The notes beneath the pieces were generated by a model, which saw nothing but the letters and a program-made list of their open reading frames with translations, was not told the DNA's origin and ran no database searches. The translations under genes were made by a program, and so were the position numbers. From an uncultured archaeon (lineage in GTDB: Archaea; Asgardarchaeota; Lokiarchaeia; Sigyniarchaeales; Promethearchaeaceae), in contig CAYRPF010000033.1 of the NCBI GenBank assembly GCA_964426185.1, positions 13,383 through 26,834 of the forward strand: a stretch of 13,452 nucleotides of DNA, in the 5' to 3' direction. Positions 3 through 13,343 of this stretch are shown here, in pieces; position 1 is the first letter of the stretch, and every line of letters begins with the position of its first letter.

Positions 3-359
3 CAAATTATTAAAGATGAAGATCGATGGGTACGCGAAATGGTTATAGAAGAATTAAATGTTACCGATTTAGAACCAAAAAACCCCATCAAAAATTCGAT
101 TGTTATCTTCTTTGCCTTTATTTTAGGAGCACTTTTTCCGGTGCTTCCATATCTAATCTTTCAAAGCATTCTTCCTTCCAATATGATTTTTTGGGTTGCA
201 ACAATAGTTACATTTGGAGGACTATTTTTAGCCGGTGCCATAAAGAAATTTGTTACTGGAGTAAATTGGGCGCGTTCAGGCATAGAAATGCTTCTGGTGG
301 GATTATTTGCCTATGGAATATCATATTTCTTGGGAAACTTAGTTGGAGCGGCAATTTAG
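3..359 (+). CDS. VIT1/CCC1 family Fe/Mn transporter, C-terminal part (5' end outside the window)
   Basis: Frame is open from position 3 (QIIKDEDRWVREMVIEEL...), so ATG 39 is internal. 'M..EEL......NPIKNSIVIFFAFILGALFPVLPY' followed by TM helices 'LFLAGAIK' and 'RSGIEMLLVGLFAYGISYFLG' is the typical VIT1/CCC1 C-terminal half. Confidence 0.85.
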   Translation, partial: QIIKDEDRWVREMVIEELNVTDLEPKNPIKNSIVIFFAFILGALFPVLPYLIFQSILPSNMIFWVATIVTFGGLFLAGAIKKFVTGVNWARSGIEMLLVGLFAYGISYFLGNLVGAAI

Positions 360-393: not shown

Positions 394-1041
394 TTATTGA
401 ACAAATTTTTTTATGGTTTTTACTTGGAAATCTTTATTTATTATGATTGAAACGTCAGATTTTAATTTTTGAACAGTTTTATGCTCTTGTTCAAGAACTT
501 TTAATCGGAAAGAATCGGACGTTTCTTTTTCTCGAATAACTTGGGCATTTTGGGTTTCTTCATAGGTCATGTCAATAAAAATTTTCACATCAGCATCAAC
601 TTTCAGTGCATAGAGCCCTTCTAAAATAATAATATCGACTTCTGCAAAATTGGTACGCAGAGAATCAACTTGATCAGTGAGAAGATCAACACATGGCATT
701 TCAGCGATTTGTTTTTCTTTAAATTTTAGAATTACTTCATTAATTTTATCCCAATTATATTCACCAAGACCAATTTCTTGAATAGAGTGCTCTTTGCGCC
801 ATTTGGTGCGTATTTTGGGATGAATTATGTAAAAATCATCAGTGTGAATTATTTTGGCATAAATTTTTTGCTTTTTCAAGTATTTGGACATCATATGTGA
901 TACAACGCTTTTTCCAGTGCCAGATTCTCCCCCTATGGCAATAATAATTCTAGGACCAATTTTTTCCAGTTTTAAAAGATCGAGAATCTCCCTTGCAACA
1001 CGTTTGTGTTTTTCGTGAATAATTAGAATATCTTCCAACAT
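394..1041 (-). CDS. Uridine kinase/PRK-fold P-loop kinase, substrate unknown (candidate sugar kinase)
   Basis: Walker A 'IIAIGGESGTGKS', 'IIHTDDFY', 'YNWDKI', Walker B-like 'IIILEGLYAL', 'DVKIFID'. This is the motif order of the uridine kinase/phosphoribulokinase family. Last gene of the co-oriented sugar cluster. Confidence 0.8.
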   Translation of the reverse strand: MLEDILIIHEKHKRVAREILDLLKLEKIGPRIIIAIGGESGTGKSVVSHMMSKYLKKQKIYAKIIHTDDFYIIHPKIRTKWRKEHSIQEIGLGEYNWDKINEVILKFKEKQIAEMPCVDLLTDQVDSLRTNFAEVDIIILEGLYALKVDADVKIFIDMTYEETQNAQVIREKETSDSFRLKVLEQEHKTVQKLKSDVSIIINKDFQVKTIKKFVQ

Positions 1042-1080
1042 TTGCTTTCATCAAGTTTTTTTTAATTTCAATTTTTATTT

Positions 1081-1116
1081 TTCGTTTTAAGGTTCGTTCT
1101 AAGTTTCGTTTCATTT
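1081..1116. repeat. Three imperfect 12-bp direct repeats (TTCGTTTTAAGG / TTCGTTCTAAGT / TTCGTTTCATTT)
   Basis: Read directly: invariant TTCGTT at 1081, 1093 and 1105 in the 96-bp spacer between the GH65 fusion stop and the kinase start. Confidence 0.65.
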
Positions 1117-1137
1117 CTAATTGTTTGTATATAATTC

Positions 1138-4100
1138 TTATAACTCAATTTCAGTCCATTTCTGATTTGATACTTCTATTTTTTGATGATTTATTTCGAT
1201 CATAAGAAATTTCTGATTAATCTGTGGCATATTAATGCGTATTTTCACCATTAAATTACTAACTATAAAAGTAAAAGTAGTTCCTTGACAAACTGCATTA
1301 AATTGAACTTGTTCAATATTGTTTGGCAAATTTGGGCGACAAAAGATCTGATCTTGAATTAACTGAAACCCGCAATATGATCTAATTAATTCTGTAACTG
1401 TAGCGGCCATAACTCCTGTGTGAATTCCTTCTTTTGTTGTGCCCCCTTGAATATCGAAAATATCACTCCCTAGTGCTTCTTGAAATAGATTCCAACTTAA
1501 AATTTTTTTATCACGCTGCTTTTTTCGGTCAAATTGGCCGATTTGATTAGCAAGGTTTGAAAATACAATTTTACTAAGTGTGGAACCGTGAGAAGTGCGA
1601 GAGAAATAATATTCGAAATTCTTTACTAAGATATCTTCGTAAGAGGGAAAGCCTAAATCAATTAGCAAATCCTTAATTTTTCTCTTGTTAAGAAGAAAGA
1701 AGACCATTAATACATCCGGTTGCTTTGAAACTTTGAAAAAATCAGTAGACGAACCCTCAGCTTTCAAGATTCTATCAAGTCGAGAAATATCCCTATATTT
1801 TTCCTTATATTTATCCCAGTCAAGTTCCTTAAGGTGAAAATATCCTTCAAATTGCTCAATTATCCCTTCTTCATTGATTGAAAGAGAAAGATTACGGGAT
1901 ATTATCCCCCATATTTGAAGATCATCATCCATTATATTAAGATGAGAAATTAGTATTCTCTTATCGTTTTTATTTAGAGATTCGATGAAAGATTTGGCTC
2001 GATCTAATAGCCAACTAACCATTATATTAGTATAAAAATTGTTTTTTAAGCCAATGTCTTGTGATTCAGGAAATTTTTCATGAAATTCATCAGGTCCCAT
2101 TACTTTTGAAATATCATATTTTTGAGTTTTCTCGTTGAATTTTGCTGCACTAACCCAAAACTTGACAATTTCAAAGAATATTTCAGCTCCATAATTCAAG
2201 AAAAAATCGTAATCTGAGGTAATTTCGAAATATCTCCAGATATTAAATGCAATCGCTAAAGAAACATGTTTTTGTAAGTAACTAAAATCCGGATCCCATT
2301 TACCCGATTTGGGATTAAAATGGAATTTCTGGGTTGTTTCAGCACCATTGCTAGCACTTTGCCAAGGAAACATTGCTCCTCTATAATTATAGGTTTGTGC
2401 ATTTTTCTTTGCATTAGGAAGACAATAATAACGATATAGAAGCAGAGAACGGCTTATTTCTGGGAAAAACAAATTGTAAAATGGAATAATGAAAATTTCA
2501 TCCCAAAAGATATGCCCATGATATGATTCTCCTGTTAGACCTCTTGCAGGAATCCCAAAATTGAAATTTGAGCTAATTAATGAAGATGTTGAAAGTAGAT
2601 GATAAGAATGCAAGCGAAGGGCTTGTTGTACAAATCGATCTCCCTTTATTTGAAGATTTATTTGATTCCAATAATAATTCCATTGATTTATATGTGAATT
2701 TAAAAGTTCAGAATAAGATTTTACTGAATTTAGGGTCTTTTTTGCTTGTTTTAAAGGATCTACTGAATCATAAGATTGGTTTGTAAAGAAAACTACGGTT
2801 TTATTGACAGTTAATGTATCATTTTCATTTAAATTACAAGAAAATTCAGAATCGATGTGTAATTTCTCTGGTTTATGGTTCCATTTTACTTCAATTCTTT
2901 GTGAATTTATAGTAACATCTAATTTTGCTATTTCAACAACAAGGATATTGGAATTATTTGTTTTAACACTTAAAAGACTCCAATCATCACCGCCCTTCAC
3001 ATTTATGGCGGTTAAATGTTGATTTTGGAAAGATTTATATCGCTCAACTCCTTCATTTCTAACATTTCCATCTAATCTTGATTTGATAAGGAAACGATCC
3101 GAATAATTCAGAGGTTTTATTGAATAGGTCAATGTTCCTATATGAGGATTATCCGCACTTGCGAATATTTCTGTGTGAATGTAAGTTTTTTCTCCCGTAT
3201 TTTCTTCAATAATTAAATCTCGATAACTAACACCTCGTTTTAAATCGATACCACGTGAATACTCACATATTCTATTTTTTTGGCTAAATGTATAAGAATT
3301 TAAATCAAAATATTCTTTTTTGTGATGTTTGAATGTCAGAAAGAGCCAATTCGGGAGATTAACGAGATCTTCATTTGAAATCACTTTTCCTTCAATTATT
3401 GAATCAAGGTGGTTATATACACCAGCGATGTAAGTTCCTGGATAACTATATTTAGATGAAGTATTTTCTACATTGATTCCTCGTGAACCAAAATATCCAT
3501 TACCTACTGCAAAAAGAGATTCATATGTGCGTTCATTTTCAGGAGTGTATTGGTTAATTTCGTATTTCCACAGTTTTTTGGGCAATTCAATTGTAAACCA
3601 ATGTTCAATAAATTGTATATCAATTTCTTTTAAATCGGAAACAACTATATCTGCCCCATTTTCTTTTAATATTTGGTGATTTTGAGCGCGTGCAATGCCA
3701 ATAATTAAACCAAAACGGCCATTTCTTCCAGCTTGAACTCCCGAAACCGCATCTTCAACCACCGCTGCTTGAAAATACGGCACTTTCAGATTTTCACAAG
3801 CTTTGAGGAAAATATCTGGTGCAGGTTTCCCTTTTAGATTCTGCTCCACAACAGTGATTCCATCGACTCGAGTATCAAATAAATGGGATATGTTGGCGAC
3901 TTCTAATACGTGCTTACAATTCTTACTGGAAGAAGCAACACCAACTTTGATACCATTTTGACGTAGATCTTGGATCAAATGAATGGTACTGGAAAAAAGA
4001 GTTACACCTTGTTCATTTAATAATTGATTGATTAAACTATTTTTTCGATTTCCTAATCCACAAACGGTTTCTTTATCATCAGAATCATCCGGATTTCCAT

Positions 4101-4347
4101 AAGGAATTTCAATATTCCGAGATTTTAAAAAAGATTGAACACCTTCATATCGAGGTTTACCATCAACAAAAGATAAATAGTCCTTTTCATAAGTAAATTC
4201 TCTAAAGGGTTCACCATATATAGATTCACGATCTTTTAGATATTCATCAAACATTTTCTTCCAAGCATTACTGTGTAATCCAGCAGTTTGAGTAATTACC
4301 CCATCAAGATCGAATATTACAGCTTTAAATGAATATATTGCTCCCAC
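1138..4347 (-). CDS. Fusion protein: N-terminal HAD beta-phosphoglucomutase-family domain + GH65 phosphorylase (trehalose-6-phosphate phosphorylase-like)
   Basis: HAD motifs I-IV: 'FDLDGVITQT', 'ASSSKN', 'KGKPAPDIF', 'EDAVSGVQAG' (~aa 1-245). GH65 motifs: 'ESLFAVGNGYFGSRG', 'RGLTGESYHGHIFWDE', 'GAMFPWQS', catalytic 'VMGPDEFHE', 'KQPD', 'RTSHGSTLS'. 'NEDLVN', 'VERY', 'RLDRILKAEG' and 'DIQGGTT.EG.H.GVM' match what I recall of the Lactococcus TrePP/mycobacterial OtsB1 subgroup. Start is GTG 4347 or ATA 4338. Confidence 0.93.
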   Translation of the reverse strand: MGAIYSFKAVIFDLDGVITQTAGLHSNAWKKMFDEYLKDRESIYGEPFREFTYEKDYLSFVDGKPRYEGVQSFLKSRNIEIPYGNPDDSDDKETVCGLGNRKNSLINQLLNEQGVTLFSSTIHLIQDLRQNGIKVGVASSSKNCKHVLEVANISHLFDTRVDGITVVEQNLKGKPAPDIFLKACENLKVPYFQAAVVEDAVSGVQAGRNGRFGLIIGIARAQNHQILKENGADIVVSDLKEIDIQFIEHWFTIELPKKLWKYEINQYTPENERTYESLFAVGNGYFGSRGINVENTSSKYSYPGTYIAGVYNHLDSIIEGKVISNEDLVNLPNWLFLTFKHHKKEYFDLNSYTFSQKNRICEYSRGIDLKRGVSYRDLIIEENTGEKTYIHTEIFASADNPHIGTLTYSIKPLNYSDRFLIKSRLDGNVRNEGVERYKSFQNQHLTAINVKGGDDWSLLSVKTNNSNILVVEIAKLDVTINSQRIEVKWNHKPEKLHIDSEFSCNLNENDTLTVNKTVVFFTNQSYDSVDPLKQAKKTLNSVKSYSELLNSHINQWNYYWNQINLQIKGDRFVQQALRLHSYHLLSTSSLISSNFNFGIPARGLTGESYHGHIFWDEIFIIPFYNLFFPEISRSLLLYRYYCLPNAKKNAQTYNYRGAMFPWQSASNGAETTQKFHFNPKSGKWDPDFSYLQKHVSLAIAFNIWRYFEITSDYDFFLNYGAEIFFEIVKFWVSAAKFNEKTQKYDISKVMGPDEFHEKFPESQDIGLKNNFYTNIMVSWLLDRAKSFIESLNKNDKRILISHLNIMDDDLQIWGIISRNLSLSINEEGIIEQFEGYFHLKELDWDKYKEKYRDISRLDRILKAEGSSTDFFKVSKQPDVLMVFFLLNKRKIKDLLIDLGFPSYEDILVKNFEYYFSRTSHGSTLSKIVFSNLANQIGQFDRKKQRDKKILSWNLFQEALGSDIFDIQGGTTKEGIHTGVMAATVTELIRSYCGFQLIQDQIFCRPNLPNNIEQVQFNAVCQGTTFTFIVSNLMVKIRINMPQINQKFLMIEINHQKIEVSNQKWTEIEL

Positions 4348-4350
4348 CTC
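4345..4350 (-). promoter_or_regulatory. Shine-Dalgarno-like GAGGTG upstream of the HAD-GH65 gene
   Basis: Minus strand reads TGATGAGGTGGGAGCAATATAT; archaeal-type GGTG core that contains the GTG called as start by the ORF track. Confidence 0.5.
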
Positions 4351-4395
4351 ATCATAGAAAAAAGATTTTTTTATTTCAAAAAAAAATTCATTGTT

Positions 4396-5517
4396 TTATG
4401 AATCGATTTTTTTTTGAACAGGAATTTCATGAAGCAAATTTAATTCACTTTCGCTATCAAAAATATGTATTTTTTCTAACGGAAAAGAAACGTATGCTTT
4501 TTCTCCCATTTTACCCGAATAATATCCATTAGCTACAGCCATAGCCGAAGTTTTATCTGGAAATTCAAATGAAACTAAAGTATTTGCCCCTAAGTACTCA
4601 ACAACTGAGATTTTCACTTCAAGTGAATTATCAAATCTTTCAGGTTGAATAATTATATGTTCAGGTCTAATTCCAAGTTTAACATTGTTGAATTCCTTCT
4701 TTTGAAGTTTTTGAATAACTTCATTATCTAAATCAATCTGATTCTCACCAAATATAATTTGAGATGCCCCTAAGTCAATTTTACAGTCGATGAAATTCAT
4801 GGTGGGAGATCCGATGAATCCTGCAACAAAAATATTTCGAGGAAAGTTATAAACTTCATGAGGTGTTCCAACTTGTTGGATATTTCCTGCATTTAGAATG
4901 GTAATACGATCCGCCATTGACATTGCTTCAACTTGATCATGAGTGACATAAATCAAGGTTGTTTGTAATCGTTTTTGCAGTTTTATGATTTCAGCACGCA
5001 TTTGTGTCCTAAGTTTTGCATCTAAATTACTGAGTGGCTCATCAAACAAGAACACAGTAGGATTTCTTACGATACAACGCCCTAAAGCAACTCTTTGCCT
5101 CTGTCCACCACTCAATTCTTTTGGTTTTCTGTCCAATAAATGACTAATATTCAAAATTTCGGCAGCTTTTTGCACGCGTTTTTCGATTTCATCAGCAGGT
5201 ATTTTAGCTAACTGTAATGCAAAACTCATGTTTTTTTTAACGTTCATATGAGGATAAAGGGCATATGATTGGAAAACCATCGCTAATTTCCGCTCTTTAG
5301 GAGGTAAATCGTTCACACAAATATCACCAAAATAAATTTCCCCAGACGTCACCATTTCTAAACCTGCAATTAAATTTAGACAAGTCGATTTTCCACACCC
5401 AGAAGGGCCTACCAATACCATAAATTCTTTATCTCTTATCGTTAAATCAATATCCTTTAAGACATGAACGTTTGGTTTGAAAATTTTATTTACTTTTTTT
5501 AATTCAATTTGAACCAT
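4396..5517 (-). CDS. malK: Carbohydrate ABC transporter ATP-binding subunit (MalK/SugC/MsmK family)
   Basis: Walker A GPSGCGKST, Q-loop 'MVFQSYALYPHM', signature LSGGQRQ, Walker B 'FLFDEPLSNLDAKLR', H-loop 'VTHDQVEAM', 'FVAGFIGSP', C-terminal regulatory domain 'LGIRPEH'. Start moved to ATG 5517 because GTG 5529 lies inside the SD AAGGTGA (5526-5532). Confidence 0.95.
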   Translation of the reverse strand: MVQIELKKVNKIFKPNVHVLKDIDLTIRDKEFMVLVGPSGCGKSTCLNLIAGLEMVTSGEIYFGDICVNDLPPKERKLAMVFQSYALYPHMNVKKNMSFALQLAKIPADEIEKRVQKAAEILNISHLLDRKPKELSGGQRQRVALGRCIVRNPTVFLFDEPLSNLDAKLRTQMRAEIIKLQKRLQTTLIYVTHDQVEAMSMADRITILNAGNIQQVGTPHEVYNFPRNIFVAGFIGSPTMNFIDCKIDLGASQIIFGENQIDLDNEVIQKLQKKEFNNVKLGIRPEHIIIQPERFDNSLEVKISVVEYLGANTLVSFEFPDKTSAMAVANGYYSGKMGEKAYVSFPLEKIHIFDSESELNLLHEIPVQKKIDS

Positions 5518-5538
5518 TTCATTTTTCACCTTTTTAGA

Positions 5539-7635
5539 TTAACCTTTTACAGCACCGCTTGTAATTCCCTTGATGATTTGTTTTTGGAATATTAAAACGA
5601 TAATTACTAATGGAACTGTTGCTAAAGAAGTTGCAGCCATTAAAGCAATATCTGTATCCCAATCTGCAGAAAGGCTTAAGGGACTTTGCACAAATCGTAA
5701 TATCGCCCTTGGAACGGTATGATTAACATCACTTACAAGCCATATCTGTGCAAACAATAATTCATTCCAAGCATTGATAAAAACTAAAATGAAGCAAGTA
5801 AACAACCCCGGAATGACCAAAGGAGCAATTACTTTGTAAAAAACTTGCAAATTTGAAGCACCATCAACTTTTGCCGCCTTCCATAAATCTTCGGGAATCT
5901 CTTGAAAAAAAGAACGAAGAACAAAAGTAGCTAGAGGTAGATTAAAAGCTGTGTAAGGTAGAAGTAAACCGAGAAGATTGTCAGTTAGATCCATAAAAGG
6001 AAGAATTTCTGCGATCGCTTTGATTTGAATAAAATAAGGTATGATAATAATTAATGGTGGGAGTGAAGTCATTGTAAAAATGATAAAAGTTGAAATATTT
6101 TTACCAGGAAATTTGAATTTTGCTAAAGCATAACCTGTAAAAGCTCCTATAATTAGGACTATTACACCAGTAGAACTGGAAAGAATAAATCCATTCAACA
6201 AAGCTCTCCCAAAACTGACTCCTGTAAAACCAGACGTTTCAAAAACAACCTTAAACGCTTTGATTGATGGATATTTAGGAAAGAATTCGAATGAATTTTG
6301 AGGAATATATGGATCTCTAAAAGAACGCCCGACAATCCAAATAAAGGGGGCTGCACAAAATAACATCATTAAAAAAATGGCAATGCGAAACTCCCAGCGC
6401 TCAATTATCCTACGTCTTTTATATTTTTTAATAGTTCCCTTCTTGAGAGAGATACTGGTTATCAAGTTTTCATCTATCTTAGAAGATAATTCACTATTTT
6501 TCGCTTTAGAAGCATTTTTATTCTGAAATTTTATCGATTTTTTAATTTTGTTTAAAAATTTATTACTCTTTTGATTGGATGACACATTGGGTAAATTAGA
6601 CTTTTTTCTCATTCGCTTATGTTTTCTATTATCTTTATCCTTTGAAGCCCACTTAAATATAATTAAGGCAAATATACCAATTAAAACAAACTCTAAAACT
6701 GCCACTGCTGAGGCCATTCCAAAATCTTGAGTTTTCGACCAGAAATTTACGGCTTGATATGTCATCGAATAAACACTGGTATCTCGAAAAACAACTATTG
6801 CATCATAAACCCGAATAGCATCCATCATTCTGAAAACTAACGCAATACCTACTCCGGGTTTAATTAACGGCCAAGTAATTCTCCAAAATGTTTGCCATTT
6901 ACTAGCCCCCGCAATGGATGCTGCTTTATAGAGATCGTCCGGAACAATTTGTAGGGCAGCTAGAATTAATAAACTGAAATATGGAGTTGTTTTCCATACA
7001 TCAATGAAAATTGAACAAAGCATTGTAAAAGTTATTTGTACATCTAAAAGATAGGGTGCATATAGAACAGGAAGGGATAATGTGAATAAAGTTTGAACAT
7101 CTGCTCCGAAAAAGGCGATTTCGCGTCCACCCAATACATTAATAACAGAATTAAACACTCCATAATCACTAAGAGGTGCAAAAAATTCATAACGAAATAT
7201 AGTTGCTGATGCAACTGTTGGTAAAGCCCAAGGGATCAATAAAGTTGCTCGTGCTAAACCTCGGCCCCTAAAATTTTTATTTAGTAAAAGAGCAAAAGCT
7301 AATCCTAAAAACAATTCAAGGAAGACGGCTACAACAGAGAAAAATAAAGTTTGATAGGTATATTGCCAGAAATATTTTGTATTGCGCCCTCCATAAAAGA
7401 GAAGCTCAAAATAATTCAAAATTGAAATTTTTGTTCCAAAATATCCCGTAGTAGCAGAACTATCTGTGAAACTAATGAAAATTCCAACTATAAGTGGAAA
7501 AAAGATTCCAAATAAAAATACGATTACGGCAGGAATTAAGATTTTTAAAGCAAATCTGGTATCTTTTCCATACCGAGTTTTCATTTTCTCTTTTATTAGC
7601 AAAGATTGTGGTTTTACAACAGAGACTTCTGCCAT
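5539..7635 (-). CDS. Fused carbohydrate ABC permease (MalF/SugA-like + MalG/SugB-like in one polypeptide)
   Basis: Two complete TM modules, each with an EAA-type loop: 'DDLYKAASIAGASKWQTFWRITWP' and 'EDLWKAAKVDGASNLQVFYKVIAP'. N-half has 'LLIPWALPTV' and 'DVWKTTP'; C-half has 'FINAWNELL' and ends 'KGITSGAVKG'. SD-like GGGAAGGA at 7642-7649. Confidence 0.93.
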   Translation of the reverse strand: MAEVSVVKPQSLLIKEKMKTRYGKDTRFALKILIPAVIVFLFGIFFPLIVGIFISFTDSSATTGYFGTKISILNYFELLFYGGRNTKYFWQYTYQTLFFSVVAVFLELFLGLAFALLLNKNFRGRGLARATLLIPWALPTVASATIFRYEFFAPLSDYGVFNSVINVLGGREIAFFGADVQTLFTLSLPVLYAPYLLDVQITFTMLCSIFIDVWKTTPYFSLLILAALQIVPDDLYKAASIAGASKWQTFWRITWPLIKPGVGIALVFRMMDAIRVYDAIVVFRDTSVYSMTYQAVNFWSKTQDFGMASAVAVLEFVLIGIFALIIFKWASKDKDNRKHKRMRKKSNLPNVSSNQKSNKFLNKIKKSIKFQNKNASKAKNSELSSKIDENLITSISLKKGTIKKYKRRRIIERWEFRIAIFLMMLFCAAPFIWIVGRSFRDPYIPQNSFEFFPKYPSIKAFKVVFETSGFTGVSFGRALLNGFILSSSTGVIVLIIGAFTGYALAKFKFPGKNISTFIIFTMTSLPPLIIIIPYFIQIKAIAEILPFMDLTDNLLGLLLPYTAFNLPLATFVLRSFFQEIPEDLWKAAKVDGASNLQVFYKVIAPLVIPGLFTCFILVFINAWNELLFAQIWLVSDVNHTVPRAILRFVQSPLSLSADWDTDIALMAATSLATVPLVIIVLIFQKQIIKGITSGAVKG

Positions 7636-7662
7636 GATTTTTCCTTCCCATTTGGTGAAATT

Positions 7663-7685
7663 AAAAAAAAATGAAAAATAAAAAA
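7663..7685 (-). terminator. Oligo-T tracts (T6, T5, T9 on the coding strand) after the solute-binding protein gene; putative partial terminator
   Basis: Plus strand A-runs at 7663-7671, 7674-7678 and 7680-7685. Oligo-U tracts are the known archaeal termination signal. Confidence 0.45.
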
Positions 7686-7707
7686 CTAACAGATAAATAA
7701 ATGTATA

Positions 7708-9153
7708 TTATTTCTTCTTTTTTATAATAGCTAAAATTCCAGCAGATAATCCCATAAGTGAAATGAGATAGATGGCAGAAAATCCAGGTACTGAAGATTC
7801 TGTTGGTCCACCACTGATTATTTCAGAAATAGCTTCATCTATTTCACCTAAACCTTTTTCTACTGATTTAATACCACCCAAAATATCATTAAATTTATCC
7901 GCAATTTCAGTACTAATATCTGGATATTTAGGATGAACTGGACGAGATAATGTCTTCTCTGCAGCGGTTTGAAATTCCGAGATCCATTCAAATCCTGTTG
8001 GCAAATCGTCAAAAACAGATTTTAAAGCTGGAAAATTAGAACATTCCGTTAATTCTGCCTTCTGAGCATCGGTATCACCTAAAAAGCGAATTAATTTCAT
8101 AGCCAAATCTTGATGAGTCCCGTATGAATTTATTGCTAAAATAGCCCCACCAACTATAGATGATTTCTCGTCTGCAGAGCCAGTTTTAGTTGGCATCGCA
8201 GTAACACCAAATTGAATATAATTCCCCGATCCATCTGTTGCATTTAAAATATCGGTATCTTTTGATGCACCATATGCAAAAGGCCATTGGCGCATAAATA
8301 TTGTGTTTCCAGCTAACCACATTCCCACACTGGAGCCTTCATCATGTGTTAACCCCGCGCGTGGAATAATGTAATCTGTATCTTGAACACCAGTATATCT
8401 AGGTGCAACTAATCCTTTCAAAAATTCCATAGCACCTTGAACTTTAGTGGTATTCAAATTTGGATTTCCATCTGCATCAAAAATAGAAGTGACACCTGCT
8501 GATCCAATCCATTCCATAAAATTACAAACACCACCTTCATAAGCATCAAATTGTCCCACAAAACCAACTAAATCAGGGTTTAAGGCTTGCTCAGTTTCAT
8601 TTGCAAGAATCGCATTTGTATTAGTCTTAAATTCATCCCAAGTGTCGAAATCAGAAATTGTAAATCCATTTCGGGTGATTATATCTTTTCGATAGAACAT
8701 TACTCCCAAATTCATAAAATAGGGATATGCCCAAACCTTACCATTATATGTACAACTTTGAACCATTCCGCCAAAATAATCATCCATTTCTCCAGCTTCT
8801 AAATCGCCAGTAAGATCTTTAATCCATCCATTTTCTGCAAATTGAGCAGTCCAAACAGTATCTAAACCAATCACATCAAATTCGCTATCCCCAGCAGCCA
8901 ATAATGTTGTAAGATAGGTAAGCTGGTCGTCTGCTCGAGTTCCAGATGCAACAACTTCAACCGCATCAACCCCCTCAGTTGCTGCTACAAAATCATCGAC
9001 GACCGCTTCTACTCCAGGAGCTTGTTGATCAGTAACAATTATATTTAGTGTCACGCCTTGAGCTTTCACTGGAGTGGCAGCAATTACCAATACAACAGGT
9101 AACACCATCATTGTGAGTAGAATGATCGATGAAATATACGAGTTTTTTTTCAT
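7708..9153 (-). CDS. Sugar ABC transporter solute-binding protein, trehalose/maltose-binding (TMBP-like), with Sec signal peptide and C-terminal PGF-type sorting/anchor signal
   Basis: 'LDTVWTAQFAENGW', 'MFYRKD', 'GQFDAYEGGVCNFMEWI', 'FMRQWPFAY', 'VGG..LAIN', 'SRPVHPKYPDIS' resemble TMBP-like family 1 binding proteins. Signal peptide MKKN...PVKA, no lipobox Cys. C-terminus VPGF + TM helix + KKKK. Start ATG 9153 follows SD AGGTGG (9161-9166); ATG 9171 is upstream of the SD. Confidence 0.92.
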   Translation of the reverse strand: MKKNSYISSIILLTMMVLPVVLVIAATPVKAQGVTLNIIVTDQQAPGVEAVVDDFVAATEGVDAVEVVASGTRADDQLTYLTTLLAAGDSEFDVIGLDTVWTAQFAENGWIKDLTGDLEAGEMDDYFGGMVQSCTYNGKVWAYPYFMNLGVMFYRKDIITRNGFTISDFDTWDEFKTNTNAILANETEQALNPDLVGFVGQFDAYEGGVCNFMEWIGSAGVTSIFDADGNPNLNTTKVQGAMEFLKGLVAPRYTGVQDTDYIIPRAGLTHDEGSSVGMWLAGNTIFMRQWPFAYGASKDTDILNATDGSGNYIQFGVTAMPTKTGSADEKSSIVGGAILAINSYGTHQDLAMKLIRFLGDTDAQKAELTECSNFPALKSVFDDLPTGFEWISEFQTAAEKTLSRPVHPKYPDISTEIADKFNDILGGIKSVEKGLGEIDEAISEIISGGPTESSVPGFSAIYLISLMGLSAGILAIIKKKK

Positions 9154-9219
9154 TATAATTCCACCTTGCATTTTTTTTTCATTCAGTCCATTTTAAATTT
9201 TACAAACCAAATATGAAAA

Positions 9220-9262: not shown

Positions 9263-9406
9263 TAAATTGTAGCCCATATATCTGCTATGGTTTTGACAAA
9301 TCTGTTATGTCGGATAACTGACAAATATGAATACTGTTGGAATTCATTCGAAAATGTTAAAATCACGCAATTATTATCTACTCTATACTACTGTGAGGTA
9401 ATAACC

Positions 9407-9823
9407 ATTAATCTAATAAAACGAACCTATCAAAAATTACTCAAACATAATCTCCTTTCTGCTATTCTAATTACTGATGTTATTTTTTCTTTTCTTTTTC
9501 TTCTAAATCCCTTTATGATTTTCATTAGTGGGGATTTAGATTTTTTATTAAGCTTGGTTACTGGAATGCTCTATATATCTAAAACTCGAAAGAAAGAGCA
9601 AAATGGATATCTTCTTTTTATCAAAGCGGGAATTTTTGGAGGTTTTATTGCATCATTATCCGCAATCGTAATTTCTATAATTCAGCAGCCGCCAAACCAA
9701 AATTCTGATATAGTTCAAATTTTCTTAATTTTCACATTATTGGGTCAATTTATTGGTTTGTTCTTGGCGTTGCTTTCAAGTATTTCATTATATTTTAAAT
9801 CCGCAAAAAAAGATAAAATTTAG
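9407..9823 (+). CDS. Small integral membrane protein of unknown function (about 4 TM helices)
   Basis: Four hydrophobic segments with Gly-rich 'AGIFGGFIA' and 'LLGQFIG', basic C-terminus. The maximal ORF begins at ATG 9287, but SD-like GTGAGGT (9393-9399) points to a start near ATT 9407. Start uncertain. Confidence 0.65.
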   Translation: MNLIKRTYQKLLKHNLLSAILITDVIFSFLFLLNPFMIFISGDLDFLLSLVTGMLYISKTRKKEQNGYLLFIKAGIFGGFIASLSAIVISIIQQPPNQNSDIVQIFLIFTLLGQFIGLFLALLSSISLYFKSAKKDKI

Positions 9824-9869: not shown

Positions 9870-10649
9870 TTAGCTGCGGAATAGTTTCATATCCGCTTTA
9901 ATTTTTTCCACAATCGGCGATATATTATTTTTCATTACATCCAATTGATCTCGCCAAGCTTTTCGCTGACTATAGCTGGCTTCACCCCAAATTCTGGGTA
10001 AATTAAACACTTTGATGGGGATCAACTCCCGCCAAGGTAATGAATCGTATACAATTTGTCCATAAGTAAAAATCAGTTCTGGTTTAAGTAATTCTATTTC
10101 AGGTTTAAGGTGTAATTCATAGCATTTTTTGATTAGATAATCTCGATCTTCTATTTTTAATTTTTGGAGAGGGCGACGTGTTTGGCATTTTACCATTGTG
10201 GTATAATATATAAAATCAAAAATCTCTTCGGGTTGAATATTTAACACTTTGGATACGGCCTCGGGGAAATCTTTATGAAAAGATAATCTCAGCGAATTAT
10301 CTTGAATATGCATTCCTTTTTGAAATACTTCTTCCGCAAATTCTAAATGAGCATCTACCATCATTTCAGCTTCATCTTGGCTTAATAATTTTCCAGTAGG
10401 ATGGATTTTCTTATATCTGCAAATTTCAGCTTTGAACATCTTCCCTGGATTTATACCGATGACCAATATTTTTTTTGGCTTTTCATAATATCCAAAGAAA
10501 TCCCGAGGAACATAGCACTTTTCATGATCTGGATGATTGATGGCAAAATATTTGTTACATTCGAAATTTGAGCATTTGAATACATTTGCATAAAGGTTAA
10601 GTATTTCTGATGAGATCCCAAATTTCCGCCGTGTATCTGTTAATTTCAC
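9870..10649 (-). CDS. Uracil-DNA glycosylase superfamily protein, atypical
   Basis: 'KILVIGINPG' (motif A), 'IYYTTMVKC', 'KKC...HLKPEIELLKPELIFTYG' follow the family 4/5 UDG layout; N-terminal C26-x4-C31. GTG start with SD AAGGAG (10657-10662) and TATA-like TTATATAT (10691-10684). Confidence 0.72.
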   Translation of the reverse strand: MKLTDTRRKFGISSEILNLYANVFKCSNFECNKYFAINHPDHEKCYVPRDFFGYYEKPKKILVIGINPGKMFKAEICRYKKIHPTGKLLSQDEAEMMVDAHLEFAEEVFQKGMHIQDNSLRLSFHKDFPEAVSKVLNIQPEEIFDFIYYTTMVKCQTRRPLQKLKIEDRDYLIKKCYELHLKPEIELLKPELIFTYGQIVYDSLPWRELIPIKVFNLPRIWGEASYSQRKAWRDQLDVMKNNISPIVEKIKADMKLFRS

Positions 10650-10711: not shown

Positions 10712-12601
10712 TTAAAATAATTTTTGATGTTTATCACACAACTCCTCGTTTTTTCGTTTTATATTATCGAGCTTAACCTTAAAAATGCGCCTATCATAAG
10801 TCATCAATCCATTATATTCAATTTCCACATCGGTAATTTGAGTGTAGACCATCCCTGAAAGCCCTTTTTGAACGGCGGGAGTTATCACAGAATCAATCAA
10901 ATGAAAGTATGCTTGTTCTAATTCTGCCGATGTTTTAATCCCTTTATACCCGAATTTCTTTTTAGGATTCCATAGATGCCCCGGTATTTCCAGCGTATAA
11001 CCTCCCGTCTCAGATAAAAGCACTCCTCGATTATCATTGGACTTGTATTGTAACCGAAAATTGTCTTTGTAGTTGTGAGTACTGAGAAAATGCCCTACTT
11101 TTTTATCGAACCAACCAGAGGCAGAATCGACAAGGCGAGTATGATCCCAAGAGATAAGCATCTCGGTGAGCCTTTCTGTATCGAACTGACCCCATGCTTC
11201 GTTAAAAAGCACCCATATTGCAATACTGGGAAAGTTATATAAATTTTTAACCATTTCTTTTAACTCTCGTTGAAAATTCTCCCGAACCAGTAATTTTTGA
11301 TAACCAGAAAGCCAATACATCTTATCATCAAGAGGATTTATGTTAAGTAGATGTAATATAAAAGAACGGGCAATCACCCCTTTTCCTCCACCGTTGGGCA
11401 TGTCTTGCCATATAATTAATCCCAACTGATCACAGTAGCGGTACCATAAAGCCGGTTCTGTTTTAATATGTTTGCGCACCATATTGAAGCCGCATTTTTT
11501 CAAAAACTCAAGATCAAAACGTAGAGCATCTTCATTGGGTGCGGTATAAAGCCCATCTGGCCAATATCCTTGATCCAACACACCTACCATAAAATAGGGT
11601 TTGTGATTGAGATGAAAGCGCATAATCCCCTTAGAATCTCTTTCTAAAGAAAATTTGCGCATAGCAAAATATGATTGAATTTGGTCGTGAATTTTCTGAT
11701 CTTGTCGAAGAGTAATTTGAAGATCGAATAATTCCGGTTTTTCAGGTGTCCAGCGCGGCAATGGTGGCAGATCCAAGCATAAACTATCTTGATACTTAAA
11801 GGATTCTTTGAAAACCGATTTCTTATGATGAAAAATCTCAATATCGAGTAAGAATGTAGATTTCCAATTATTCTCATTAGTTTCATTCTCTGGTGGGGTA
11901 AAATGAGTTTTTAAATTAATAGAAAGCTGATTTTTGTCAATATCCGGAGTTAAAGTAATTCGATCGATAGCATTAATTGATACTGGTTCAATCCATACGG
12001 TTTGCCAGATCCCTGAAATTGGGGTATAAAATACAACAGCGGGTTTCAACCATTGTTTACCCGATGGTTGATGGCCTTTTTCGGTTGGATCATATACTTT
12101 GACCATCAAGACATTTTCTTTATCGAAAGCCGAATGTAAAAATGGAGTAATATCGAAATTAAAAGGATTATACCCCCCTTTATGGGTTCCAACTAAATTA
12201 TTATTAACATAAATGGTAGATTCCCAATCGACGGCTCCGAAATGCAAAAATATCCGCTGATTTTTCCATTCTTCGGGAATAATAAAGGTACGACGATACC
12301 ACAGTAAATTTTTAGAGGTAAGAGAACGTTGAACACCCGATAAATATGATTCCACTGGAAAGGGAACCCGAATTTTACCTTCAGGAGCGGGCATATTTTG
12401 AAGCTTCAAGTTGGAAATAGCATACTCCCAATTTCCATTCAAATTTAACCATTTTGGGCGTTGGAGTTGAGGTCTGGGGTAAGATTTCCATGCTTTATTC
12501 GCATCGAATTTTTCTCCCCACTTTGTTAGCATTGGAGGTGAAGGAAAGTAAGGTGATCCTTTAATTTGTTTTGAAGCACTTTTGTTATCCATATTTAACA
12601 T
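10712..12601 (-). CDS. Glycoside hydrolase family 2 (beta-galactosidase/beta-galactofuranosidase-like subgroup), no signal peptide
   Basis: 'YPRPQLQRPKWLNLNGNW', 'WYRRTF', 'LHFGAVDW', 'HKGGYNPF', 'SGIWQTVWIE', 'LDQGYWPDGLYTAP', 'GFNMVRKHIK', acid/base 'WVLFNEAWGQ', nucleophile region 'LLSETGG', 'YTQITDVE.E.NG.MTYDR'. Start is ATG 12601 or 12592. Confidence 0.93.
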   Translation of the reverse strand: MLNMDNKSASKQIKGSPYFPSPPMLTKWGEKFDANKAWKSYPRPQLQRPKWLNLNGNWEYAISNLKLQNMPAPEGKIRVPFPVESYLSGVQRSLTSKNLLWYRRTFIIPEEWKNQRIFLHFGAVDWESTIYVNNNLVGTHKGGYNPFNFDITPFLHSAFDKENVLMVKVYDPTEKGHQPSGKQWLKPAVVFYTPISGIWQTVWIEPVSINAIDRITLTPDIDKNQLSINLKTHFTPPENETNENNWKSTFLLDIEIFHHKKSVFKESFKYQDSLCLDLPPLPRWTPEKPELFDLQITLRQDQKIHDQIQSYFAMRKFSLERDSKGIMRFHLNHKPYFMVGVLDQGYWPDGLYTAPNEDALRFDLEFLKKCGFNMVRKHIKTEPALWYRYCDQLGLIIWQDMPNGGGKGVIARSFILHLLNINPLDDKMYWLSGYQKLLVRENFQRELKEMVKNLYNFPSIAIWVLFNEAWGQFDTERLTEMLISWDHTRLVDSASGWFDKKVGHFLSTHNYKDNFRLQYKSNDNRGVLLSETGGYTLEIPGHLWNPKKKFGYKGIKTSAELEQAYFHLIDSVITPAVQKGLSGMVYTQITDVEIEYNGLMTYDRRIFKVKLDNIKRKNEELCDKHQKLF

Positions 12602-12605
12602 TTCG

Positions 12606-13343
12606 CTACTTTTCTTTTAAATGTGCTCGTATAGAATAATATGGGGTGATCATGGTACCGAGGACTTTTATTTGCTGGAGGAGGGAATTTTTCAACAACC
12701 AAAATGCCAACCTTACCAATCCGTTTGGAAGGAAATTTTTCCATTCAGAAAAATGAGAAAAAAGCGCGCTAATGATCTCGGATTGAGCGGTTAAAGTATC
12801 TCCTATATCTTGATTATCGATCACAAAATGATAATTTTTTAGCAGTGAGTCAAGGGTTTGGGGATCAATTTCTTGATAGGGATTTTTTCCTGCATAGAGA
12901 AGAAGACTTTTGATAAATCTCCAATACATCCTCCATAGAAAATATTTTTGCGAATCTTGAGAGTAAAGAGGAAATTCTTCTTCAATAAATAGAAGCCCGC
13001 CTGGTTTTAAAACTTCAGCCCAACGGGAGAAACAAATAGGTACTTTACCCGTTTGAGAGTTAATTGCGCAAAGGGTGTAACCTTCCACAATTATATCAAT
13101 TGAATTTGGGATTAAACCCTCTAATTTCTCACCAGAAGTTTGGATAAAAGTAACTCTATCTTGTAATTCTGAATACGAAGAAAATAGATGAGATATATCT
13201 CGCGCTACAATATCAGTAGTAATTAGCCGAGAATTGGGATAATTTAACATATCTCCAATAATTTGAAGCGTCGTAGCCCCATTTCCCGTTCCTATTTCTA
13301 AAATGGTTTTTTCAGTTAAATCTACATTTTCAAGATAAACCAT
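12606..13343 (-). CDS. Class I SAM-dependent methyltransferase
   Basis: Motif I 'ILEIGTGNGATT', acidic 'ITTDI', 'SIDIIV', 'VLKPGGLLFIEE'. SD AAGGAG at 13352-13357, 8 nt upstream of the ATG. Confidence 0.88.
   Translation of the reverse strand: MVYLENVDLTEKTILEIGTGNGATTLQIIGDMLNYPNSRLITTDIVARDISHLFSSYSELQDRVTFIQTSGEKLEGLIPNSIDIIVEGYTLCAINSQTGKVPICFSRWAEVLKPGGLLFIEEEFPLYSQDSQKYFLWRMYWRFIKSLLLYAGKNPYQEIDPQTLDSLLKNYHFVIDNQDIGDTLTAQSEIISALFSHFSEWKNFLPNGLVRLAFWLLKNSLLQQIKVLGTMITPYYSIRAHLKEK

Follow-up and report, generated by a model that had tools for sequence, protein, structure and literature searches.

A candidate trehalose 6-kinase in a predicted phosphotransferase-independent trehalose gene cluster of Lokiarchaeia

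What supplies the substrate of a trehalose-6-phosphate (T6P) phosphorylase in an organism in which a sugar phosphotransferase system (PTS) is not found? The question is raised by a 13,452-nucleotide stretch of Lokiarchaeial DNA (contig CAYRPF010000033.1, positions 13,383 to 26,834; hereafter the window), the minus strand of which carries five co-oriented open reading frames (ORFs) for the binding protein, permease and ATPase of an ATP-binding cassette (ABC) importer, a HAD-GH65 fusion protein and a P-loop kinase (Table 1). The gaps between them, counted from the binding protein to the kinase, are 72, 9, 48 and 96 nt, which confirms an earlier, sequence-only reading of the window in which all were put below 100 bp. 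We think it probable that the locus is a PTS-independent trehalose catabolic unit, in which trehalose is imported by the ABC system, converted with ATP to T6P and then to two molecules of glucose 6-phosphate (G6P). According to this scheme, the ABC system would import trehalose and, judging from the relatives of the binding protein, possibly other alpha-glucosides too; the P-loop kinase would transfer phosphate from ATP to C6 of one glucosyl unit of trehalose; the GH65 domain would split T6P with phosphate into beta-glucose 1-phosphate (beta-G1P) and G6P, an activity that was shown in the synthesis direction for an orthologue of 47% identity; and the fused beta-phosphoglucomutase (beta-PGM), assigned by its family and intact catalytic residues, would convert beta-G1P to G6P, which would enter glycolysis through PGI, also encoded in the window genome. 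The sequence-only reading had proposed the same succession from trehalose through T6P and beta-G1P plus G6P to two G6P, and our results support it in silico, with a predicted activity for the kinase.

The HAD-GH65 fusion and the importer

The GH65 part of the fusion matched PDB entry 9LB6 (named 'trehalose-6-phosphate hydrolase') with 451 bits, compared with 293 for kojibiose phosphorylase and 164 for maltose phosphorylase. Six specificity positions of GH65 were defined by De Beul et al. 2021, who also showed the synthesis of T6P from beta-G1P and G6P by Caldithrix abyssi APF18594.1 (CaGP), an enzyme that bears the motif DQGQDE (PMC8537180). The window protein has DQAQDE, in agreement with the assayed enzyme at five of the six positions, the sixth position being E864; DQGQDE itself is present in 123 of 156 relatives. 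We located APF18594.1 in the C. abyssi genome sequence, where the accession matched exactly, and found it to be the same beta-PGM-GH65 fusion, 47% identical to the window protein over the full length (1065 aa). Residues E754, W615, D616, K875, Q876, R602, S922 and H976 (mapped through an alignment to 3WIQ) are identical in the two proteins; E754 is the catalytic acid, R602, S922 and H976 lie at the phosphate-site positions and the others belong to the -1 subsite. The loop-7 motif RxDRxxKAEG is intact (R856/R859/K862/E864). The beta-PGM domain exceeded the cut-off of TIGR02009 (168 against 153) and stayed below that of TIGR01990 (115 against 189); its best PDB match was the beta-PGM 8H5S (220 bits), presumably M. 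tuberculosis Rv3400, and the catalytic residues D13-x-D15, S140-S141-K142 and D199 are intact. These comparisons support the placement of the GH65 domain with the assayed T6P phosphorylase in the T6P phosphorylase (TrePP) subgroup (subgroup 22). The TrePP-subgroup motifs noted in the sequence-only reading were therefore borne out, and the grouping with the assayed enzyme gives no sign of the phosphorylase of unphosphorylated disaccharides that would have spoken against that reading.

The importer has the architecture of the CUT1 trehalose/maltose (alpha-glycoside) type, with SBP_bac_1, MalF/MalG and MalK components; in Asgard relatives of family f27 (L225, L226), MalF and MalG are separate genes. 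The binding-protein ORF starts with an ATG at 9153, with a second possible ATG at 9171, and its product carries an N-terminal signal or hydrophobic stretch and a C-terminal hydrophobic anchor. The top PDB matches of this protein were the 6JB0/6J9W group (138-142 bits); SmoF scored 132, MalE3 126 and the T. litoralis trehalose/maltose-binding protein 1EU8 121 bits, compared with at most 69 for other solute-binding proteins. At the position of Trp in the 6J9W-group protein (GGW) it carries Ala (GGA), as does the top match 6JB0, and this residue may enlarge the sugar pocket.

Some of these data speak against trehalose as the substrate. The SmoF score is near that of the trehalose/maltose-type relatives, and the GH65 domain departs from its family at 26 of 223 columns that are conserved in at least 90% of the members. 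Among these columns are several loop-3 positions and position 610, in the YRGH motif, where an R-to-H change is confined to the genus of the window; the genus-specific changes near the specificity loop also comprise G to A665, T671, F677 and K693. One could envisage that the logic of the pathway is the same and the sugar is another, the GH65 of this genus having drifted to another alpha-glucoside, such as glucosylglycerol, an analogue of trehalose or unphosphorylated trehalose, and the kinase being matched to that sugar; the genus-specific residues would fit such a drift, and so would binding-protein relatives that comprise broad alpha-glycoside binders as well as SmoF. However, the fingerprint agrees with that of the assayed enzyme, DQAQDE is also found in other Lokiarchaeia that retain R at 610, and loop 7 is unaltered, so that we consider a change of sugar very unlikely.

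Relationships of the P-loop kinase

The kinase matches the Pfam PRK profile, and the names of its database matches, those of an Atlas search included, are automatic 'uridine kinase' labels. It has the PanK/UCK/PRK fold, with fold-search matches at 14-19% identity, and the Walker A motif GESGTGKS (38-45), a putative base (D68), E141, R82, R170 and R179 are all present. An ordinary uridine/cytidine kinase, placed beside the GH65 gene incidentally, would account for the Pfam match and the names, and the gene is the only PF00485 member found in its genome. However, the protein scored 47 bits on the udk equivalog profile, the cut-off of which is 220; C. abyssi and a Bacteroidota carrier (G461) each possess a separate, canonical Udk that is 52% identical to E. 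coli Udk; and the distribution of the kinase is patchy and tied to GH65.

Profile searches placed the kinase in a larger family that includes a sister group of the window clade. Sister-group genes adjoin a sucrose-6F-phosphate phosphorylase (best PDB match 6S9V, 706 bits) or an SPS-like GT4 gene, and elsewhere they form fusions with GT4, GH100 invertase or GH13 sequences. These sucrose-phosphate neighbours pointed to AgaSK of Ruminococcus gnavus, the 212-aa C-terminal domain of which phosphorylates C6 of the glucosyl unit of sucrose (PMC7688924). AgaSK was absent from the results when the sister-group profile was used to look for longer proteins; alleles of 935 aa, one of which is named AgaSK in UniRef, were recovered by searching with the published primers. 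The sucrose-kinase domain (AgaSK-SK) scored 123 bits on the sister-group profile and 58 bits on the window-clade profile, compared with at most 68 and 40 bits, respectively, for true Udk proteins. In pairwise comparisons the window kinase gave 35 bits with AgaSK-SK and at most 21 with Udk, and AgaSK-SK gave at most 13 with Udk, PanK and PRK. The tree set the kinase family and AgaSK-SK apart from Udk, CoaA and YggC (support 98/99); E. coli PrkB fell inside the family on a very long branch, a placement that is probably an artefact. The window kinase lies in a clade of its own (97/94) that is tied to TrePP and separate from the sucrose-linked group.

By these comparisons, the sucrose 6-kinase domain of AgaSK is the closest to the window kinase among the characterised relatives tested, and AgaSK is the one characterised sucrose kinase that our literature search found. 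AgaSK-SK acts on C6 of an alpha-glucosyl unit in a non-reducing disaccharide, and this is the position that carries the phosphate in T6P. The window kinase resembles RgSK in working logic, yet it is not an orthologue of the sucrose kinase. Its separate clade, and the fact that a kinase with proven disaccharide 6-kinase activity is closer to it than the uridine kinases are, speak against an enzyme for nucleosides alone, which the sequence-only reading had named as a refuting outcome, and make an incidental uridine kinase extremely unlikely.

Several observations on the kinase family are recorded here. The window genome contains a broken second copy (C120:2256-2465; L064:2256-2462, minus strand) that corresponds to residues 114-182 with 67% identity, has an internal TAA and stands alone between unrelated genes. 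A tandem second copy, which forms its own clade, is present in seven Bacteroidales loci (L008:9194, L010:7661, L013:9347, L016:9346, L022:9286, L025:3234, L032:9342); the P-loop of most of these copies is altered (GEVxxGK instead of GESGSGK), and a role as a regulatory or heterodimer partner is possible. A third clade, rich in K and R (P0276, P0291 and relatives; L258, L259), comes from phage-like contigs dense in small genes and rich in glycosyltransferase and methyltransferase genes. One sister-group kinase (P0344) is split by an intein that contains a LAGLIDADG domain, and in a deltaproteobacterium (L043:9920-14100) the genes for a very divergent kinase and for a GH65 fusion with a degenerate HAD motif (FVDDS) converge.

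Gene neighbourhoods and routes to T6P

In 32 of 37 loci that were selected by the window-clade kinase alone, a TrePP-type GH65 gene of the same orientation lies directly upstream of the kinase, no more than 2.2 kb away, and three of the remaining five genomes carry a TrePP-like gene elsewhere. This synteny, the absence of which would have counted against the sequence-only reading, spans Bacteroidota, Chloroflexota, Calditrichota and Asgard archaea, most of the carriers being bacterial. In C. abyssi the kinase gene (APF18595.1, 48% identical to the window kinase) follows APF18594.1 after 14 nt, with an SSF symporter gene upstream. Profile searches found the kinase and the TrePP-type GH65 together in the same five of 151 Lokiarchaeia and the same six of 301 Asgard genomes. 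The host genome of the window (3.26 Mb, 92% complete) has a close relative, GCA_021498095.1 (a single-contig assembly labelled Lokiarchaeota), with all five genes, and the five-gene order is conserved in the related loci L001 and L003. Elsewhere, the order ATPase-fusion-kinase is kept up to a contig end that cuts the permease (G018), the fusion-kinase pair is divergent from the ABC genes (G134), or the contig ends after a divergent binding-protein gene, the sole ABC gene visible (G140). The family f27 loci of Asgard archaea also include a TrmB-type regulator, and the ABC system linked to them is a related one. The transporters identified beside the kinase loci are of the ABC, MFS or SSF type, although not every neighbour was scanned for PTS parts. 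The window locus has neither a sucrose-6F-phosphate phosphorylase nor an SPS-like partner, and no match to the former was found in the genome. The neighbours of the kinases track substrate class, in that the sister group lies by sucrose-phosphate enzymes and the window clade by T6P enzymes, which supports a trehalose kinase. Two Anaerolineae loci (L007:9935-15486, L011:10001-14023) have both modules one after the other: the TrePP fusion with a window-clade kinase gene is followed by genes for a ROK kinase, a sucrose-group kinase and a sucrose-6F-phosphate phosphorylase.

We also searched five Lokiarchaeia carriers (74-93% complete, one of them a single contig) and detected neither EI nor HPr, and no GT20 (OtsA/TPS), T6P phosphatase (PF02358, OtsB) or TreT; hence no other source of T6P, and no exit from it to trehalose, was found in them. 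In C. abyssi there was no GT20 and no PF02378 EIIC match, although according to its genome paper it has PTS genes for monosugars. Entry from maltose through TreS was considered and rejected, as the GH13 protein of the window genome (on C87) scored below every equivalog cut-off. Many Bacteroidales loci do have TreS-like GH13 genes at their flanks.

Alternatively, the kinase may serve the beta-PGM or hexose-phosphate side of the pathway, either by making the beta-glucose-1,6-bisphosphate primer or by phosphorylating glucose, with T6P supplied externally or by an enzyme not yet recognised. Such a role would be consistent with loci L037 and L038, where the kinase gene follows a stand-alone beta-PGM gene without GH65, with two kinase genomes of which one has only a distant GH65 (G465) and the other none (G463), with the presence of a putative fructose kinase (3C8U) in the same fold, and with the import of phosphorylated disaccharides proposed for the R. 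gnavus locus. It is at odds with the pairing of the sister group with GH13_18 and GT4 enzymes, in which no beta-G1P is involved, and with the action of the sole assayed relative on a non-reducing disaccharide; moreover, the window genome already encodes a ROK-family kinase, and another source of T6P was not detected. We regard this role as quite unlikely.

Other bacteria have the kinase as part of a fusion with TPS-TPP. These fusion proteins of about 945 aa (L030:4832-7666, L261:6001-8853; P0243, P0245, P0249, P0251, P0402) have DYNGT instead of DYDGT in the phosphatase motif and degenerate synthase motifs, and in L030 and L261 a second TPS-TPP gene and a GH65 gene adjoin the fusion. A mainly synthetic or storage unit would be one explanation: beta-PGM and a reversed TrePP would make T6P, a phosphatase would free trehalose as an osmolyte, the ABC system would salvage it, and the kinase would remobilise or regulate the pool. 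TrePP is reversible and was assayed in the synthesis direction, the kinase-GH65 pair lies beside TPS-TPP or is fused to it in some bacteria (many of these with degenerate motifs), C. abyssi did not grow on trehalose, and in the Nerearchaeum preprint considered below it is suggested that trehalose is taken up to serve as compatible solute or carbon source. On the other hand, the searches of the five Lokiarchaeia carriers yielded no T6P phosphatase (PF02358), TPS or TreT, the importer and the TrmB-type regulators match catabolism, and remobilisation would itself require a trehalose kinase activity. A storage unit therefore seems unlikely to us.

Further points have to be set against a trehalose kinase in a catabolic unit. 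The window kinase and AgaSK-SK share just 23% identity, and the nearest neighbours of its clade include a group from contigs of small genes, rich in glycosyltransferases and devoid of disaccharide enzymes, so that the acceptors of the family may be broader. The Asgard carriers come from two families, and their co-occurrence data thus represent few independent events. In some bacteria, a synthetic or regulatory role is conceivable in view of the degenerate TPS-TPP partners. C. abyssi showed no growth on trehalose (PMC5317091, Suppl. Table 2), although maltose and sucrose, for which it has predicted genes, did not support growth either. Finally, the precedent itself contains a mismatch: the reported product of AgaSK is sucrose-6G-phosphate, whereas the neighbouring phosphorylase needs the 6F-phosphate. 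With these points taken into account, it still appears fairly likely that what is labelled a 'uridine kinase' gene encodes an ATP-dependent trehalose 6-kinase, the first to be identified, and that this enzyme and AgaSK are branches of one disaccharide 6-kinase family. The kinase would then define a PTS-independent route from trehalose through T6P to two G6P, common to anaerobic members of the Bacteroidota, Chloroflexota and Calditrichota and to some Asgard archaea, and would explain how the Caldithrix T6P phosphorylase is supplied with substrate.

The surroundings of the unit are included in Table 1. On the kinase side, the VIT1 gene (L231:11178-11813) has a rubrerythrin-like gene nearby and is present in L001 too; a set similar to the GH2, methyltransferase, UDG and membrane-protein genes upstream is syntenic in L001 and, in part, in L003. 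A sigma-70 promoter and terminator scan gave 45 sites where 41 were expected, a bacterial consensus being uninformative for an archaeon. The short inverted repeats found upstream of the binding-protein gene in a scan for a TrmB-type operator are not conserved in L001 and L003, and a tblastn search of the window genome for a TrmB gene gave only a weak 50-aa match.

Table 1. Predicted features of the window
Feature	Position	Strand	Basis
SBP_bac_1 sugar-binding protein, alpha-glucoside/trehalose-maltose type	7708..9153	-	Pfam and PDB matches; ATG start
Fused MalF+MalG-type ABC permease, 698 aa	5539..7635	-	Two BPD_transp_1 stretches; MalF and MalG profiles
MalK/UgpC-type ABC ATPase	4396..5529	-	ABC_tran, OB_MalK and TOBE_2; UgpC subfamily above cut-off
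HAD-GH65 fusion, 1069 aa	1138..4347	-	ORF and family profiles
Beta-PGM (HAD) domain, N-terminus of fusion	3622..4347	-	TIGR02009 above cut-off; PDB 8H5S; residues
GH65 T6P phosphorylase-type domain of fusion	1138..3570	-	PDB match, fingerprint, APF18594.1 alignment
PRK/Udk-fold P-loop kinase, 215 aa, related to AgaSK sucrose kinase; candidate trehalose 6-kinase	394..1041	-	Pfam, motifs, fold, tree
VIT1 iron-transporter gene, convergent on kinase, closing the unit on the kinase side	3-359	+	
Small membrane protein, upstream of cluster	9287-9823	+	
UDG-superfamily protein, upstream of cluster	9870-10649	-	
GH2 glycosidase, upstream of cluster	10712-12601	-	
Methyltransferase, upstream of cluster	12606-13343	-	

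Novelty and comparison with known systems

Two proposals of the sequence-only reading need qualification. For each ATP spent by the kinase two G6P are predicted, but this was rejected as a distinguishing, energy-saving feature: trehalose phosphorylase with glucokinase equally gives two G6P per ATP, and a ROK-family kinase is present, so energetics do not single out the T6P route; ABC import itself also costs ATP. In addition, that reading knew of no description of the route in archaea. The route is not specific to them, as most carriers are bacteria, and the transporter and the fusion are annotated in the supplement of an Asgard preprint, in the searched parts of which the kinase is not mentioned. 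What was known already is thus the Asgard transporter with its 'beta-PGM + T6P phosphorylase' annotation, and what is probably new is the candidate kinase step. In the full-text literature, within incomplete coverage, 'trehalose kinase' was found as an activity postulated in yeast and as a name in a review legend that cites the Lactococcus TrePP paper, with no gene identified. If the assignment is correct, the kinase would represent a novel enzyme activity that leads in a single step to T6P, a sugar phosphate that is costly and acts in signalling, and a widespread family labelled 'uridine kinase' would have to be re-annotated. It would also account for T6P phosphorylases in organisms without a trehalose PTS or OtsA, and would offer a concrete sugar-use pathway to look for in cultured Asgard lineages, which have been proposed to use trehalose supplied by partner bacteria.

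In Lactococcus lactis, T6P delivered by the PTS is processed by TrePP (GH65, EC 2.4.1.216) and beta-PGM (Andersson 2001, as cited in PMC11442529). The window shares with this system the T6P phosphorylase subgroup of GH65, beta-PGM and the predicted products; unlike L. lactis, it has ABC import, fused enzymes and an extra P-loop kinase as the candidate phosphorylation step, and EI and HPr were not found. The C. abyssi locus is alike in its beta-PGM-GH65 fusion, downstream kinase and fingerprint, and differs in having an SSF symporter and TonB receptors where the window has an ABC system; in the accessible text of the C. abyssi study (PMC8537180), the phosphorylase alone was assayed and the kinase is not discussed. 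Nerearchaeum marumarumayae, cultured as an Asgard enrichment, has trehalose/maltose ABC genes and a gene annotated as 'beta-PGM + trehalose-6-phosphate phosphorylase' with neighbouring locus tags (LOKIASV2_19040-19080; bioRxiv 10.1101/2025.07.22.663070, supplement); this system is known by annotation alone, and the searched text and supplements contain neither a kinase nor a source of T6P. M. tuberculosis likewise imports trehalose through an ABC system, LpqY-SugABC, and needs the beta-PGM Rv3400 for growth on trehalose, but the paper names no T6P or kinase step (PMC13689574).

Alike in logic is the Rgaga1 locus of R. gnavus E1, which combines an ABC importer, the AgaSK sucrose kinase and a sucrose-6F-phosphate phosphorylase (PMC6521584, PMC7688924), that is, ABC import, a homologous Udk-fold kinase and an adjacent disaccharide-phosphate phosphorylase. 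It differs from the window in its sugar, sucrose; in its phosphorylase, a retaining GH13_18 enzyme that yields alpha-glucose 1-phosphate, in contrast to the inverting GH65 enzyme and beta-G1P of the window; and in its kinase, which is fused to GH36 and groups with the sister group. Since trehalose is symmetric, the 6G/6F mismatch between AgaSK and its phosphorylase would have no counterpart in a trehalose-specific window clade, which would therefore offer a clean test of the kinase-then-phosphorylase logic.

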